Shown here piece after piece: positions 2,541 through 24,612 of a DNA stretch of 64,000 nt. The DNA is taken from the NCBI RefSeq assembly GCF_022846255.1, contig NZ_AP025682.1; one strand, given 5' to 3'. The position numbers and the translations under genes were made by a program. The notes under the pieces are model-generated. The model did no database searches, had not been told where the DNA came from, and worked only from the letters and a program-made list of their open reading frames with translations. This DNA comes from Escherichia coli. GTDB lineage: Bacteria > Pseudomonadota > Gammaproteobacteria > Enterobacterales > Enterobacteriaceae. How positions within the stretch are numbered: the first letter of the stretch is position 1; each line of letters opens with the position of its first letter.

Positions 2541-4536
<1,996 letters not shown>

Positions 4537-16856: not shown

Positions 16857-17774
16857 ATGCCACTCTCAAAGGTCTGGGCAGGTTCACTGGTTTTGTTGGC
16901 AGCCGTGAGCCTGCCGCTACAGGCGGCTTCCCCCGTTAAGGTTGGTTCAAAAATCGATACGGAAGGCGCGCTGCTCGGCAATATCATTTTGCAGGTGCTG
17001 GAAAGTCACGGCGTTCCTACGGTAAATAAAGTGCAACTGGGAACGACTCCCGTAGTGCGCGGGGCGATCACTTCTGGCGAGCTGGATATCTATCCGGAAT
17101 ATACTGGCAATGGCGCGTTTTTCTTTAAAGATGAAAACGATACGGCATGGAAAAACGCGCAGCAAGGCTATGAGAAAGTCAAAAAACTCGATGCAGAGCA
17201 AAACAAGTTAATCTGGCTGACGCCCGCGCCTGCAAATAACACCTGGACCATCGCCGTGCGTCAGGATGTGGCAGAGAAAAACAAACTCACTTCGCTTGCC
17301 GAGCTGAGTCGTTATCTGAAAGAGGGCGGCAACTTCAAACTGGCAGCCTCGGCAGAGTTTATCGAACGTGCCGATGCCTTACCCGCGTTTGAAAAAGCCT
17401 ATGGCTTTAAGCTCGGTCAGGATCAGTTGCTGTCACTGGCCGGTGGTGACACGGCGGTGACGATCAAAGCCGCTGCCCAGCAAACTTCTGGTGTTAATGC
17501 CGCAATGGCTTACGGCACCGACGGCCCGGTTGCGGCGCTGGGGCTGCAAACCTTAAGCGATCCGCAAGGCGTGCAACCTATCTACGCGCCTGCGCCAGTG
17601 GTGCGTGAGTCGGTGCTGAAAGAGTATCCGCAAATAGCACAGTGGCTACAGCCAGTCTTCGCCAGCCTCGATGAAAAAACATTGCAGCAGCTGAATGCCA
17701 GCATTGCAGTGGAAGGACTGGATGCCAAAAAAGTGGCAGCCGACTACCTGAAACAAAAAGGGTGGACGAAGTAA
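16857..17774 (+). CDS. osmF: Periplasmic substrate-binding protein OsmF (YehZ) of the YehZYXW ABC transporter
   Basis: ORF track 16857..17774; signal peptide; recognised; first gene of a four-gene ABC operon. Confidence 0.9.
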   Translation: MPLSKVWAGSLVLLAAVSLPLQAASPVKVGSKIDTEGALLGNIILQVLESHGVPTVNKVQLGTTPVVRGAITSGELDIYPEYTGNGAFFFKDENDTAWKNAQQGYEKVKKLDAEQNKLIWLTPAPANNTWTIAVRQDVAEKNKLTSLAELSRYLKEGGNFKLAASAEFIERADALPAFEKAYGFKLGQDQLLSLAGGDTAVTIKAAAQQTSGVNAAMAYGTDGPVAALGLQTLSDPQGVQPIYAPAPVVRESVLKEYPQIAQWLQPVFASLDEKTLQQLNASIAVEGLDAKKVAADYLKQKGWTK

Positions 17775-17780
17775 TTTCCC

Positions 17781-18938
17781 GTGACTTATCTACGTATTAA
17801 TCCTGTTCTGGCGCTGCTGCTGTTGCTGACGGCAATCGCAGCGGCGCTGCCGTTTATCAGTTACGCACCTAATCGTTTAGTTTCGGGTGAGGGGCGTCAT
17901 CTCTGGCAGCTGTGGCCGCAAACTCTCTGGATGCTGGTGGGCGTTGGTTGCGCCTGGCTGACAGCCTGTTTTATTCCCGCTAAAAAAGGCAGCATTTTTG
18001 CACTCATTCTGGCGCAATTCGTCTTCGTATTGCTGGTGTGGGGAGCTGGAAAGGCGGCGACACAACTGGCGCAAAATGGCAGTGCGCTGGCGCGTACCAG
18101 CCTCGGCAGTGGTTTCTGGCTGGCTGCGGCGCTGGCACTGCTGGCCTGTAGCGATGCCATCCGCCGAATCTCCACGCATCCGCTGTGGCGCTGGTTGTTG
18201 CATATGCAGATTGCCATTATTCCGCTGTGGTTGCTGTACTCCGGCACGCTTAACGATCTCTCGTTAATGAAAGAATACGCCAACCGTCAGGATGTGTTTG
18301 ACGACGCGCTGGCACAACATCTGACGTTGCTGTTTGGTGCGGTGCTGCCTGCGTTAGTGATTGGTGTGCCGTTGGGCATCTGGTGCTACTTTTCCACCGC
18401 GCGGCAGGGGGCGATTTTTTCTCTGCTGAATGTCATTCAGACCGTGCCTTCGATAGCGCTCTTTGGCCTGTTGATTGCGCCGCTTGCCGCGCTGGTTACG
18501 GCCTTTCCGTGGCTGGGAACGCTCGGCATAGCAGGAACCGGAATGACACCCGCACTGATTGCACTGGTGCTCTATGCCCTGTTACCGCTGGTGCGCGGCG
18601 TAGTAGTCGGCTTGAACCAGATCCCGCGCGATGTGCTGGAGAGCGCCAGAGCGATGGGGATGAGCGGGACGCAGCGTTTCCTGCATGTTCAGTTACCGCT
18701 GGCGTTACCGGTATTTCTGCGCAGCCTGCGGGTGGTGATGGTGCAAACCGTTGGCATGGCGGTGATTGCGGCGTTAATCGGCGCAGGCGGTTTTGGTGCG
18801 CTGGTTTTTCAGGGGCTGTTAAGCAGTGCCATTGATTTAGTGTTGCTGGGGGTGATCCCGGTAATTGTTCTGGCGGTGCTTACCGACGCGCTGTTCGATT
18901 TGCTTATCGCACTGCTGAAGGTGAAACGTAATGATTGA
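17781..18938 (+). CDS. yehY: ABC transporter permease YehY (GTG start)
   Basis: ORF track 17781..18938; polytopic permease; overlaps yehX start. Confidence 0.88.
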
Positions 18939-19857
18939 ATTTAGCCATGTCAGCAAACTGATCGGCGCACAAAAAGCCGTTAACGATCTCAATCTCAATT
19001 TTCAGGAAGGGAGTTTTTCGGTGCTGATTGGCACATCTGGCTCCGGCAAATCCACCACCCTGAAAATGATTAATCGCCTGGTGGAGCATGACAGCGGCGT
19101 GATCCGCTTTGCCGGAGAAGAAATTCGTTCGCTGCCAGTGCTGGAGCTGCGCCGCCGGATGGGCTATGCCATTCAATCTATTGGCCTGTTTCCCCACTGG
19201 AGCGTGGCGCAAAACATTGCCACCGTGCCGCAATTACAAAAATGGTCGCGGGCGCGGATCGACGATCGTATCGACGAATTAATGGCGCTGCTGGGGCTGG
19301 AGCCGGATTTGCGTGAGCGTTATCCGCATCAGCTTTCCGGCGGTCAGCAGCAACGTGTGGGAGTGGCCCGCGCGCTGGCTGCCGATCCGCAAGTCTTGCT
19401 GATGGATGAGCCATTCGGCGCACTGGACCCGGTAACGCGTGGCGCGTTGCAACAAGAGATGACGCGCATTCACCGTTTGCTGGGGCGCACTATTGTGCTG
19501 GTCACTCATGATATTGATGAGGCGCTACGGCTGGCAGAACATCTGGTATTGATGGATCACGGTGAAGTGGTGCAGCAGGGCAATCCGCTGACGATGCTGA
19601 CTCGTCCGGCGAATGATTTTGTTCGCCAGTTTTTTGGACGTAGTGAACTGGGTGTGCATCTGCTTTCGTTACGTAGCGTGGCGGATTACGTGCGCCGTGA
19701 AGAACGGGCTGAAGGTGAGGCACTGGAAGAAAGGATGACGCTACGCGATGCGCTCTCCCTGTTTGTTGTGCGGGGATGCGAAGTGCTGCCGGTGGTGAAC
19801 ACGCAGGGGCAGCCTTGCGGCACACTGCATTTTCAGGATCTACTGGTGGAGGCGTGA
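18931..19857 (+). CDS. yehX: ABC transporter ATP-binding protein YehX
   Basis: ORF track 18931..19857; Walker [13 protein letters not shown] signature LSGGQQQR, Walker B LLMDEP. Confidence 0.92.
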
Positions 19858-19861
19858 GTGT

Positions 19862-20593
19862 ATGAAGATGTTGCGCGATCCGCTCTTCTGGCTCATTGCT
19901 CTGTTTGTGGTGCTGATTTTCTGGCTACCCTATAGCCAGCCGCTGTTCGGTGCTTTATTTCCGCAGCTGCCACGGCCCGTTTATCAGCAAGAAAGTTTTG
20001 CAGCTCTGGCGCTGGCTCATTTCTGGCTGGTGGGGATCTCAAGTTTGTTTGCTGTAATTATCGGCGTTGGTGCCGGAGTTGCCGTCACTCGCCCGTGGGG
20101 AGCAGCGTTTCGCCCGATGGTAGAAACCATTGCCGCCGTTGGGCAGACTTTTCCACCTGTAGCGGTGCTGGCGATTGCCGTTCCGGTGATGGGGTTTGGT
20201 CTGCAACCGGCGATTATCGCGCTGATCCTTTACGGCGTGCTACCCATCTTGCAGGCGACACTTGCCGGGCTGGGAGCGATTGATGCCAGCGTGACAGAAG
20301 TTGCGAAAGGTATGGGAATGAGTCGTGGTCAGCGACTGCGTAAGGTCGAGCTACCGCTGGCGGCTCCGGTGATTCTGGCGGGCGTGCGAACTTCGGTGAT
20401 TATCAACATTGGTACGGCGACGATCGCCTCAACGGTAGGGGCCAGCACGCTGGGTACGCCGATCATCATCGGGCTTAGCGGATTTAATACCGCGTATGTG
20501 ATCCAGGGGGCGTTACTGGTGGCACTGGCGGCGATCATCGCAGACCGCCTGTTTGAAAGGCTGGTGCAGGCGTTCAGCCAGCACGCAAAATAA
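19862..20593 (+). CDS. yehW: ABC transporter permease YehW
   Basis: ORF track 19862..20593; membrane permease. Confidence 0.88.
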
Positions 20594-20681
20594 AGGTATA
20601 ACCTGCGAGCATGACGCCACCAATTCCGCCTAACGCCATAAACAGGAACAGGGCGATGACCCCAATTTTAGCTATGCGCAT
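20574..20681 (-). CDS. yohO: Small membrane protein YohO (35 aa)
   Basis: Reverse complement of 20574..20681 translates [35 protein letters not shown]; recalled as the K-12 small protein YohO; 3' end overlaps yehW 3' end by about 20 bp. Confidence 0.65.
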
Positions 20682-20740
20682 AATGCACTCCTTATGTTAA
20701 CGAAAGGATTGTACAGTAAAGCGCATTTGTTAACGAATCA

Positions 20741-21472
20741 TTAAATGCCGAGTGGGAAAATATCATGGCCTTGTTCCTGCCAACTGGTGAGTTGCTGCTG
20801 TTGGGCAGAGGTTCGATTTTCACCGCACCACACCAGCAATGTACGGCCTTCGAACAGTTCAGGGCGTAGTTGATTGAGCGAGTGAGCGAGGACATCAATG
20901 CGCCATCCTTGTTGACTGGCAATCCAGCCCTCCAGCCACAGACGGGTGGTATCGTGAATATTCCAGCCAACCACCAGCGCATCTTTACCCTGTTTTTTAC
21001 GTGCCGAAGCCAGACAAATGGCGATGTAGTTGATCAGTACGCCGTCGAGGATCGCCAGCAGCGCCTGGAGAGTCGGTTGTTGGCACTGAAGCCGTCGGCG
21101 CAGAGGAATAAACAGATGTGTGGTGAGTGTCTGGGCGGGGTAATCCTGACCGCGCTCTTTGATCCACGTTCGCAGGCTATGCAGATTGCCGCTTTGCAGG
21201 TAAGTCAGTAATGTTTCTTGCTGATCGCGCCAGCCGTTCTGCACATCAACATTTTCATTACTGAGCAGCATTTTTACTTTGCTGACCTGCACGCCGTTGT
21301 CGATCCAGCGTTTGATCTCGCGGATCCGGTCAATATCGGCATCGTTGAACAGCCGATGACCGCCGTCTGTCCGTTGTGGTTTCAGCAATCCGTAACGCCT
21401 CTGCCACGCGCGTAACGTGACAGGGTTAATATCACAAAGCAACGCCACTTCACCAATTGTGTAAAGCGCCAT
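20741..21472 (-). CDS. mlrA: MerR-family transcriptional regulator MlrA (csgD activator)
   Basis: ORF track 20741..21472; N-terminal MerR HTH (MALYTIGEVALLCDINPVTLRAWQRRYGLL). Confidence 0.9.
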   Translation of the reverse strand: MALYTIGEVALLCDINPVTLRAWQRRYGLLKPQRTDGGHRLFNDADIDRIREIKRWIDNGVQVSKVKMLLSNENVDVQNGWRDQQETLLTYLQSGNLHSLRTWIKERGQDYPAQTLTTHLFIPLRRRLQCQQPTLQALLAILDGVLINYIAICLASARKKQGKDALVVGWNIHDTTRLWLEGWIASQQGWRIDVLAHSLNQLRPELFEGRTLLVWCGENRTSAQQQQLTSWQEQGHDIFPLGI

Positions 21473-21693
21473 CGTCTCACCCTTGCTCGCGAGGTCCCGG
21501 TTTAACTTTAGACGCAGTTTTGCGAACCAGGTAGTTTTGCCCGTTTTTTGTGCATCTATAGGGTGATTTTATTTTTGCCAGGCGATTTTGAGTGATCGTA
21601 CTCACGAATTCTCATTTTTCTGCAAGAGTTCAAAGAAAGTTAAACGCAAGCAATGTATGTTACGCGTTTTAAAGGGAAGTGTGGTTTGCGGGT

Positions 21694-23379
21694 ATGTACG
21701 ATTTTAATCTGGTGTTGCTGCTGCTTCAGCAGATGTGCGTTTTTTTAGTCATTGCGTGGTTAATGAGTAAAACGCCATTATTCATACCGTTAATGCAGGT
21801 CACGGTTCGTCTGCCGCATAAATTTCTCTGCTACATCGTCTTTTCCATCTTCTGCATCATGGGCACCTGGTTTGGGTTGCACATTGACGATTCTATTGCC
21901 AATACCCGTGCGATAGGTGCGGTAATGGGCGGCTTACTCGGCGGTCCGGTCGTCGGTGGGCTGGTTGGTCTGACCGGCGGGTTACATCGATATTCGATGG
22001 GGGGCATGACCGCGCTAAGTTGCATGATCTCGACCATCGTTGAAGGATTGCTCGGCGGCCTGGTACACAGCATCCTGATCCGTCGCGGGCGCACTGATAA
22101 AGTCTTTAACCCCATTACCGCCGGTGCCGTCACGTTCGTCGCTGAAATGGTGCAAATGTTGATCATCCTGGCGATCGCCCGACCTTATGAAGATGCGGTG
22201 CGTCTGGTGAGTAATATTGCTGCGCCAATGATGGTCACCAATACCGTCGGCGCGGCACTGTTTATGCGTATATTGCTCGATAAACGCGCGATGTTTGAAA
22301 AATACACTTCGGCTTTTTCTGCCACTGCGCTGAAAGTGGCGGCCTCGACGGAAGGCATTTTGCGCCAGGGGTTTAACGAAGTGAACAGCATGAAAGTGGC
22401 ACAGGTGCTGTATCAGGAGCTGGATATTGGTGCAGTCGCGATTACCGATCGAGAGAAATTGCTGGCCTTTACCGGAATTGGTGACGACCACCATTTACCC
22501 GGCAAACCAATTTCTTCGACTTATACCTTAAAAGCGATTGAAACCGGTGAAGTGGTCTACGCTGATGGCAACGAAGTGCCTTACCGTTGCTCTTTGCATC
22601 CGCAATGCAAACTGGGGTCGACGCTGGTCATTCCGTTGCGTGGTGAAAATCAGCGAGTGATGGGTACCATCAAATTGTATGAAGCCAAAAACCGTTTATT
22701 CAGTTCAATCAACCGCACGCTGGGCGAGGGGATTGCGCAACTGCTTTCGGCGCAGATCCTCGCCGGGCAATATGAGCGGCAAAAAGCGATGCTCACCCAG
22801 TCAGAGATCAAACTGCTTCACGCCCAGGTGAATCCCCATTTTTTGTTTAATGCGCTTAACACCATTAAAGCGGTGATCCGCCGCGACAGCGAACAGGCCA
22901 GCCAGCTGGTGCAGTATCTTTCTACTTTTTTCCGCAAAAACTTAAAGCGGCCTTCGGAGTTTGTTACTCTCGCCGACGAAATTGAACATGTGAACGCTTA
23001 TCTGCAAATTGAAAAGGCGCGCTTCCAGTCGCGGTTGCAGGTCAACATTGCTATTCCGCAAGAATTATCCCAGCAGCAATTGCCCGCGTTTACCCTGCAA
23101 CCGATAGTGGAAAACGCCATTAAACATGGGACATCACAACTGCTGGATACAGGGCGAGTGGCAATCAGCGCCCGACGTGAGGGGCAACATTTGATGCTGG
23201 AGATCGAAGACAATGCCGGTTTGTATCAACCGGTAACCAATGCCAGTGGGCTGGGGATGAATCTGGTGGATAAGCGTTTACGTGAACGGTTTGGCGATGA
23301 CTATGGGATAAGCGTCGCCTGTGAGCCTGATAGTTACACCCGAATAACGTTACGACTACCATGGAGGGACGAGGCATGA
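21694..23379 (+). CDS. btsS: LytS-type sensor histidine kinase BtsS (YehU), 561 aa
   Basis: ORF track 21679..23379; start at [11 protein letters not shown]; N-terminal membrane domain and C-terminal kinase domain. Confidence 0.9.
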
Positions 23380-24095
23380 TTAAAGTCTTAATTGTCGATG
23401 ATGAACCGTTAGCACGGGAGAACCTGCGCGTATTTTTGCAGGAGCAGAGCGATATTGAAATCGTTGGAGAGTGTTCAAACGCCGTAGAAGGGATCGGCGC
23501 GGTGCATAAACTGCGCCCGGATGTGCTGTTTCTCGATATCCAGATGCCGCGCATCAGTGGTCTGGAAATGGTGGGGATGCTCGACCCGGAACATCGCCCG
23601 TATATTGTTTTTCTCACCGCGTTTGACGAATACGCCATTAAAGCCTTTGAAGAACATGCCTTTGATTATCTGCTGAAGCCAATTGATGAAGCGCGACTGG
23701 AGAAAACGCTGGCGCGATTGCGTCAGGAGCGCAGCAAGCAGGATGTTTCGCTGTTACCGGAAAATCAACAGGCGCTGAAATTTATCCCTTGTACGGGGCA
23801 TAGTCGGATTTATTTGCTGCAAATGAAAGATGTGGCATTTGTCAGCAGTCGGATGAGCGGTGTCTACGTGACCAGTCACGAAGGGAAAGAGGGCTTTACC
23901 GAACTGACATTACGTACCCTGGAAAGTCGTACACCACTACTGCGCTGCCATCGTCAGTATCTGGTTAACCTCGCGCATTTACAGGAGATCCGTCTGGAAG
24001 ATAACGGCCAGGCCGAGTTGATTTTGCGTAATGGCTTAACCGTGCCGGTCAGCCGCCGTTATCTGAAAAGCTTAAAAGAGGCGATTGGCCTGTAA
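23376..24095 (+). CDS. btsR: LytTR-family response regulator BtsR (YehT), 239 aa
   Basis: ORF track 23361..24095; start at [16 protein letters not shown] (receiver domain); ATGA overlap with btsS stop. Confidence 0.9.
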
Positions 24096-24141
24096 AAGAC
24101 TGCTAAAATGGCTTTTTGCCTCATCAACACCTGAAGGCCTC

Positions 24142-24612
24142 ATGCTAAGTAACGATATTCTGCGCAGCGTGCGCTACATTTTGAAAGCCAATAATAATGA
24201 CCTGGTGCGTATTCTGGCGCTGGGTAATGTCGAAGCCACCGCGGAACAGATCGCCGTCTGGCTACGTAAAGAAGACGAAGAGGGTTTTCAGCGTTGTCCG
24301 GACATTGTTTTGTCTTCATTCCTCAATGGCCTGATTTATGAAAAACGCGGCAAGGATGAGTCTGCTCCGGCACTGGAGCCGGAACGTCGCATTAATAACA
24401 ACATCGTGCTGAAAAAATTACGCATCGCGTTTTCGCTTAAAACCGATGACATTCTGGCAATCCTCACCGAACAGCAGTTCCGCGTTTCGATGCCGGAAAT
24501 TACGGCGATGATGCGTGCACCGGATCATAAAAACTTCCGCGAATGCGGCGATCAATTTTTACGGTATTTTCTGCGTGGACTGGCAGCGCGCCAGCATGTG
24601 AAGAAAAGCTAA
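24142..24612 (+). CDS. yehS: DUF1456-family protein YehS (156 aa)
   Basis: ORF track 24085..24612; start at MLSNDILRSVRY (24142). Confidence 0.85.
   Translation: MLSNDILRSVRYILKANNNDLVRILALGNVEATAEQIAVWLRKEDEEGFQRCPDIVLSSFLNGLIYEKRGKDESAPALEPERRINNNIVLKKLRIAFSLKTDDILAILTEQQFRVSMPEITAMMRAPDHKNFRECGDQFLRYFLRGLAARQHVKKS

Follow-up and report, generated by a model that had tools for sequence, protein, structure and literature searches.

Convergent excludons are pairs of opposite-strand neighbors with overlapping transcripts (the Sesto/Lasa concept; Conway 2014; ExcludonFinder 2025). Such overlap is the rule among the convergent operons of Escherichia coli, 276 of 370 of which (75%) overlap, by 286 nt on average, and overlap alone is therefore no sign of regulation. 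Small membrane proteins, for their part, are familiar as modulators of transporters, KdpF, AcrZ, MgtS, and SgrT being examples. A third described class, the overlapping bidirectional terminators (Ju et al. 2019), also concerns genes that converge. The junction between yohO and yehW, which we analyzed in a 64,000-nt stretch of E. coli DNA that we call the window, consists of opposite-strand neighbors with overlapping transcripts and already appears among the 165 convergent excludons of ExcludonFinder (2025), each of which was seen in half or more of 58 RNA-seq samples. Its coding overlap, its overlapping RNAs, and the cutting of the resulting double-stranded RNA are all catalogued for E. coli, so that an account of the junction in these terms is already known, correct but ordinary. 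What we add is the conservation of the overlap across the family together with a simple coding explanation for it, a conserved promoter belonging to yohO itself and carrying an operator-like repeat, and the occurrence of yohO without an adjacent transporter operon.

In the window, the osmF-yehY-yehX-yehW operon (16857..20593, plus strand) comprises osmF (16857..17774), yehY (17781..18938), yehX (18931..19857), and yehW (19862..20593), all on the plus strand and placed by their ORFs and by annotation (RefSeq for yehW, whose transporter function is given by EcoCyc); osmF is a member of the core RpoS regulon. Facing the operon is yohO (20574..20681, minus strand), 35 aa followed by a TGA stop and encoding a small membrane protein of the UPF0387/YohO family, with mlrA (20741..21472, minus strand; ORF and annotation) upstream of it on the same strand, and with btsS and btsR on the plus strand coming after these two minus-strand genes. 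The sequence-only reading had described a 35-aa ORF with a single transmembrane segment, convergent with yehW and having about 20 bp in common with it, and this description holds: the sequence and the ORF list give a shared coding segment of exactly 20 bp (20574..20593, both strands), RefSeq agrees for K-12, and a hydrophobic core together with the family label UPF0387_membrane is consistent with a single transmembrane helix. The yehW stop TAA (20591-20593) falls within yohO codons F30-I31, and the yohO stop TGA (20576-20574) falls within yehW codons F-S. As a separate observation on the operon, arrays of YdeO over-expression list osmF, yehY, and yehX as induced and do not list yehW, hinting weakly that the final operon gene behaves differently.

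The same arrangement is annotated in other E. coli strains. Window positions 19800-21600 are matched in 5425 of 5426 complete E. coli genomes, RefSeq annotates an identical pair with a 20-bp overlap in E. coli E7-1N7, and K-12 MG1655 likewise has the 20-bp overlap (yohO, 2215657..2215764; yehW, 2215745..2216476). Around the junction, about 2 kb (19700-21800) are colinear with K-12 at 96% identity with no gaps, and the genes, their order, and the overlap are identical to those of K-12 yohO (b4542) and yehW (b2128); the yohO stop is TGA in the window as against TAA in K-12, one yehW codon is altered (F, not L), and there is otherwise no structural difference. The transcript and double-stranded RNA data used below were all obtained in E. 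coli K-12 or Klebsiella and were projected onto the window strain, with w = 20574 - (k - 2215764) converting a K-12 position k to a window position w. The K-12 3' end, Rho zone, nested transcription unit, and double-stranded RNA cluster all project without gaps.

Length by itself is no evidence for a gene of this size, as dozens of ORFs of about 35 codons occur in the ORF list of the window. The case that yohO is a real small membrane protein gene with a promoter of its own rests instead on a family match, purifying selection, a conserved promoter and ribosome-binding site (RBS), and mass spectrometry. Over residues 1-35 of 35, YohO scores 80.1 bits against the curated equivalog NCBIfam NF010225, 'protein YohO', for which the cut-off is 57 bits, and its homologues carry the Pfam label PF27791. 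It has the features of the YohO/UPF0387 family, namely about 35 aa, one hydrophobic helix, and a conserved core, and M1, K5, M15, A16, G19, G22, V23, M24, L25, G27, Y28, and I31 are invariant in the alignment. Within the 29 codons outside the yehW overlap, the median dN/dS is 0.14 over 2531 pairs drawn from 78 distinct sequences, and variability by codon position is 0.15/0.05/0.38. The family is a narrow one, with 37 cluster representatives at E <= 0.001 among 1.84 billion. The protein has been detected by top-down mass spectrometry in ordinary cultures of E. coli, and ribosome-profiling coverage over the ORF is reported in a preprint citing Hemm 2008; yohO is thus expressed, as the sequence-only reading had presupposed.

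The signals for yohO expression lie on the minus strand immediately upstream of the gene. The RBS AAGGAG (20688..20693) stands 6 nt upstream of the ATG, with GGA invariant and the last G of the GGAG core nearly so. The -10 element is TACAAT (20708..20713) here and TATAAT in most genera, and the start site, with the promoter position taken from the Conway data as tabulated in Huang 2020, projects to ~20699-20700, close to a TTAAC motif. In the -10 element, T-A-n-A-n-T is invariant across 63 distinct sequences, and the element is kept in distant relatives without mlrA. Between the mlrA stop and the yohO start, a terminator scan returned no terminator-like site, and read-through from mlrA into yohO is therefore possible. 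The -35 region holds an inverted repeat, TTAATG-N3-CGTTAA (20730..20744, minus strand), which overlaps the mlrA stop codon and is unique within the window (chance expectation, 0.01 matches). Most genera have CATTAA in place of CGTTAA, and a looser motif, TTAAT-N5-RTTAAC, occurs at the equivalent place in 65 of 80 species loci, among them loci in which mlrA was not detected in the fetched flank. Judged by sequence, the repeat looks like an operator, and we treat it as a putative one.

Two further candidates at this promoter were set aside. In several genera, changes that appeared compensatory by eye suggested a hairpin in which the pyrimidine tract after the -10 element masks the RBS, with registers that vary by genus; RNAalifold predicts no pairs for it, and transcription is projected to start only downstream of the tract. 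RNAalifold likewise returned no consensus structure for the yohO 5' region. For an MlrA box, manual comparison found the half-site TGTACAAT, a partner half with only 4 of 8 bases, and TATAAT in other genera, and the resemblance was judged coincidental.

Other observations concern the plus strand here and the mlrA gene. A promoter-like site, ATGACC-17-CATAAT (20656..20684, plus strand), lies within the 5' end of yohO, with a -10 that takes in the complement of the yohO ATG and a start at ~20691. An antisense start site of Thomason et al., U00096.2 2213668(-), agrees with it as tabulated in Huang 2020. RNA from the ~20691 start would overlap the yohO 5' UTR by ~10 nt and enter the 3' end of mlrA in the antisense direction. 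For mlrA itself, the sole 3' end in Term-seq is internal to the ORF, 39 nt in (K-12 2214904, window ~21434, minus strand), directly downstream of a terminator-like hairpin that the scan detected (21468..21446), and may reflect premature termination or attenuation.

Since the coding sequences themselves overlap, every complete mRNA of yohO or yehW is antisense to the other. The sequence-only reading had accordingly expected mRNAs that are antisense at their 3' ends, and the K-12 data (Term-seq, Rho zone, and operon map) show an overlap far longer than 20 nt. In the yohO direction, Term-seq places a 3' end, designated 'primary yohO / antisense yehW', at K-12 2215813(+), which projects to window 20525, 49 nt beyond the yohO stop and 69 nt into the yehW coding sequence. 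Up to this mapped stable end, the yohO 3' UTR (20525..20573, minus strand) lies antisense to codons of yehW, and a GGCGG...CCGCC stem with no U tract precedes the end. The signal of the end is weak: it scores ~900-1100, and strong 3' ends in that table reach tens of thousands or more. A read-through zone within yehW (20343..20524, minus strand) then terminates at a Rho-dependent region antisense to yehW, which peaks at K-12 2215995(+) with a Rho score of 5.64 (p = 9e-16), projecting to window 20343, ~230 nt beyond the yohO stop.

In the opposite direction, the Conway operon map, as given in Huang 2020, ends a 3884-nt operon at U00096.2 2213660, or window ~20699-20700, and the 3' untranslated tail projected for this RNA (20594..20700, plus strand) is antisense over the entire yohO ORF, RBS, and 5' UTR. 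In the same map, again as given in Huang 2020, a 254-nt yohO unit running from ~20700 to ~20445 lies fully inside this opposite-strand transcript. A comparable picture is available from Klebsiella pneumoniae MGH 78578, in which an 800-nt exponential-phase transcript (2810932-2811731) covers 92.4% of yehW, starts ~30 nt upstream of a 37-aa ORF, and contains that ORF, YohO, at 2810962-2811075. The covered fraction corresponds to 682/738, as predicted by the 26-nt overlap of that genus, and the Klebsiella sense operon transcript likewise continues past yohO. Genome-wide, the published K-12 data have in effect carried out the strand-specific 3'-end comparison that the sequence-only reading had suggested, and the transcripts overlap and do not stop short of each other.

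Where the two polymerases stop seems not to be set by a dedicated terminator. The scan found no terminator-like site on the plus strand from the yehW stop to the yohO promoter, a consensus scan found none on either strand between yohO and yehW, and over the wider region it returned 3 hits, equal to the shuffle expectation. Rfam, searched for known RNA families, gives no match in 17000-24500 at E <= 1. After yohO in L084 and L091, the two loci in which the operon is not adjacent, there is likewise no terminator-like site, a finding that carries no weight either way. The yohO 3' region of the window does fold at -30.9 kcal/mol (z = -1.85), with a stem that ends just short of the mapped 3' end. 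As a conserved element, whether a terminator or a protective stem-loop, this structure was rejected, the RNAalifold family consensus being -1.03 kcal/mol with almost no covariation; sequence conservation 3' of yohO tracks the yehW codons. An operon terminator in the yohO-mlrA spacer fared no better, with a fold indistinguishable from shuffled sequence (z = -0.20) and no plus-strand site in the scan. With no terminator-like site between the genes and no conserved structure on the yohO strand, each polymerase would therefore enter the opposite gene, and the pattern agrees with stopping that depends on Rho or on collision, the 3' end being protected locally.

These same results bear on the explanation that most closely competes with regulation, in which the overlap and the overlapping RNAs are a neutral by-product of tight packing and leaky termination, with no measurable effect on output, and are hard to undo. 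Because overlap is the norm for convergent operons, this explanation stays a strong rival, and both the low Term-seq scores of the yohO-direction 3' end and the lack of conserved RNA structure on either side of yohO speak for it; we consider it plausible while stopping short of calling it probable.

Evidence that the two RNAs meet comes from short duplexes captured by p19, which binds the short duplexes made by RNase III. Cluster 173 in Table S1d of Huang 2020, 'yehW yohO' (U00096.2 2213690-2213981; 368 RPM, 194 sense/174 antisense; type 'Full'), includes listed single duplex pairs of ~21 nt and projects, within 2 nt, to window 20378..20670 on both strands, ~292 bp covering yohO and the 3' end of yehW. 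The Lybecker columns for double-stranded RNA are empty for this cluster in Huang's table. The p19 reads drop ~10-fold in an rnc mutant, a figure that is genome-wide rather than specific to yohO-yehW. RNase III processing, which the sequence-only reading had also proposed to check, has in effect been assayed on a genome scale, with a p19 cluster over yohO-yehW and rnc dependence established for the genome as a whole. The place of this duplex among 301 p19 clusters, although p19 catches few convergent 3' regions, counts against a purely neutral by-product, since it means that a share of each RNA is actually broken down. It also counts against neutrality that excludon pairs, as a class, are published as seldom co-expressed in single cells.

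Given these data, our preferred reading is a convergent excludon-type arrangement in which the yohO and operon RNAs enter each other's gene, pair, and are cut by RNase III, with an effect that would be asymmetric, and we lean toward it with restrained confidence. The geometry, the extents of both RNAs, and the short p19-captured duplex fragments of RNase III type are demonstrated, the RNA and duplex data in K-12 or Klebsiella. The uneven YdeO listing of the operon genes adds a weak hint in favor. Against this reading stand the empty Lybecker columns, the weak Term-seq signal, the commonness of overlap among convergent operons, the coding explanation for the conserved overlap given below, and the persistence of yohO in genomes without an adjacent operon. 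If this reading is right, then yohO would be transcribed from its own promoter, possibly supplemented by mlrA read-through, and its RNA would have a stable end ~50 nt into yehW, with part of it going on to a Rho-dependent stop ~230 nt in. The RpoS-dependent operon RNA would cross all of yohO to about the yohO promoter, the two RNAs would pair over roughly 180-290 nt, and RNase III would cut the duplex. The mutual interference that the sequence-only reading allowed for would be asymmetric in what each RNA can reach, as the operon tail would cover the whole of the short yohO mRNA including the RBS, and yohO transcription could harm only the final 70-250 nt of yehW. If the operon tail masks the entire yohO mRNA in this way, then high operon expression, in stationary phase or under osmotic stress, should lower YohO, and we infer that the size of the interference is probably modest.

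A small hydrophobic peptide whose mRNA is covered by antisense RNA also recalls a type I toxin-antitoxin system, in which such a peptide would be restrained by the antisense partner. YohO is 35 aa and hydrophobic, the antisense RNA covers its whole mRNA, and on the opposite strand an antisense start is reported ~10 nt upstream of its ATG; this start, however, is directed away from the yohO coding sequence, and the covering RNA is the operon tail rather than a dedicated small RNA with its own promoter, such as defines a type I system, and has no Rfam family match. YohO is, moreover, detectable in ordinary cultures, and throughout a whole bacterial family its gene is kept in single copy, in synteny, and under purifying selection. 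Toxin loci are patchy and repeated, unlike yohO. We regard a toxin-antitoxin function as extremely improbable.

Whether the overlap is kept for the sake of regulation can be approached by comparison across the family. Using a YehW probe, we fetched 80 species-level Enterobacteriaceae loci, which with the window and the E. coli locus L001 make 82, and a YohO homologue is convergent with and overlaps yehW in 81 of them. The overlap measures 20 nt in 37 loci (Escherichia, Citrobacter, Salmonella, Buttiauxella, and Cedecea), 26 nt in 42 (Enterobacter, Klebsiella, Kosakonia, and Leclercia), and 17 nt in 2. In the 26-nt group (L017, L025, L037, L040, and 38 others, at ~3713..3738), a 6-nt insertion within the shared segment extends both proteins by 2 residues, giving a YohO of 37 aa (...RGGVG) and a YehW of 245 aa (...RHRREQ). 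In one locus, from Citrobacter amalonaticus AUH_CA_2023_1 (L007, ~3787), the yohO match begins at residue 12, with the N-terminal part out of frame or mutated, perhaps through a frameshift or an error in the assembly.

The positions of the two stops offer a simple account of this conservation. The two stops are placed alike in 80 of 80 loci: the TAA or TGA that ends yehW is the reverse complement of nucleotides within a conserved (F/V)-I codon pair of YohO, NTY-ATY, and the yohO stop sits in a YehW codon pair made of a hydrophobic residue followed by S/T/N/K/I. Switches between TAA and TGA correspond to synonymous T/C changes on the opposite strand, and where YehW has leucine at the position of the yohO stop, its codon is CTT or CTC in 57 of 57. 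Purifying selection on each protein thus holds the stop of the other gene in place, and the conserved overlap therefore needs no regulatory explanation; from these sequence patterns, its deep conservation probably comes from coding lock-in and not from selection for regulation. The neutral by-product gains from the same facts, since in all 80 loci each stop lies inside conserved codons of the other gene, and the insertion within the overlap merely added two residues to each protein.

The more distant relatives point in both directions. Overlaps of 20 nt occur both beside mlrA (L082) and in metG-side contexts without mlrA (L093-L095), and in several loci mlrA is undetected in the fetched flank or lies farther away and yohO is still found with yehW. 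Elsewhere a gap takes the place of the overlap, 11 nt in L087/L088 and 0 nt in L089/L090 (4001..4180), in which the most distant YohO homologue, 59 aa with a polar Pro/Ser-rich C-terminal tail, abuts the yehW homologue in another gene neighborhood. Such gaps speak for a neutral by-product; the retention of tail-to-tail adjacency where the coding overlap is missing argues against that explanation.

Persistent adjacency could instead mean shared function, with YohO acting as a subunit or modulator of the OsmF-YehYXW transporter. The gene adjoins yehW whatever its other neighbor, whether mlrA, a metG-side context, a helicase gene, or an EamA-family gene, and both products are inner-membrane proteins, by family labels alone. 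Adjacency is already accounted for by the coding overlap, however, and yohO and the operon genes are convergent, with no co-transcription. In L084 and L091 (both 4001..4108), yohO is kept beside a NUDIX gene or bglX and osmF-yehYXW is not adjacent, and the small gene is therefore retained without a neighboring transporter. Reports of an interaction were not found in the literature, and we think a protein partnership very unlikely.

The most ambitious reading would make the junction a regulatory module of ancient origin, maintained by selection throughout Enterobacterales, that renders YohO and the betaine transporter mutually exclusive, with the RpoS-induced operon tail silencing yohO, exponential-phase yohO transcription trimming yehW, and the inverted repeat serving as the switch. 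We think this unlikely. The more restricted excludon-type arrangement that we prefer would still matter, since an antisense interplay with a measurable effect would link the level of a widely conserved small membrane protein to the expression of a stress-induced betaine transporter. If that effect is real, then yohO-yehW would offer a clean and compact model for convergent excludons, one where a partner has its entire mRNA masked.

Set against known systems, YohO resembles KdpF, AcrZ, MgtS, and SgrT in its size class, its single hydrophobic helix, and its site beside transporter genes, and differs in that yohO is convergent with those genes and survives without the operon alongside. With the overlapping bidirectional terminators (Ju et al. 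2019; RNAP-collision model), the junction shares convergence, the lack of a canonical intrinsic terminator, and the expectation of head-on polymerases. The sites of Ju et al. are described as Rho-independent and as requiring a nascent stem-loop, whereas yohO-yehW has a Rho-dependent zone and no conserved stem-loop, which places it outside that class. The closest likeness is to the convergent excludons, with which it has in common opposite-strand neighbors, overlapping transcripts, and p19-captured duplexes; at yohO-yehW, unlike in those pairs, the coding sequences themselves overlap and the entire transcript of the small gene lies inside the RNA of its partner.
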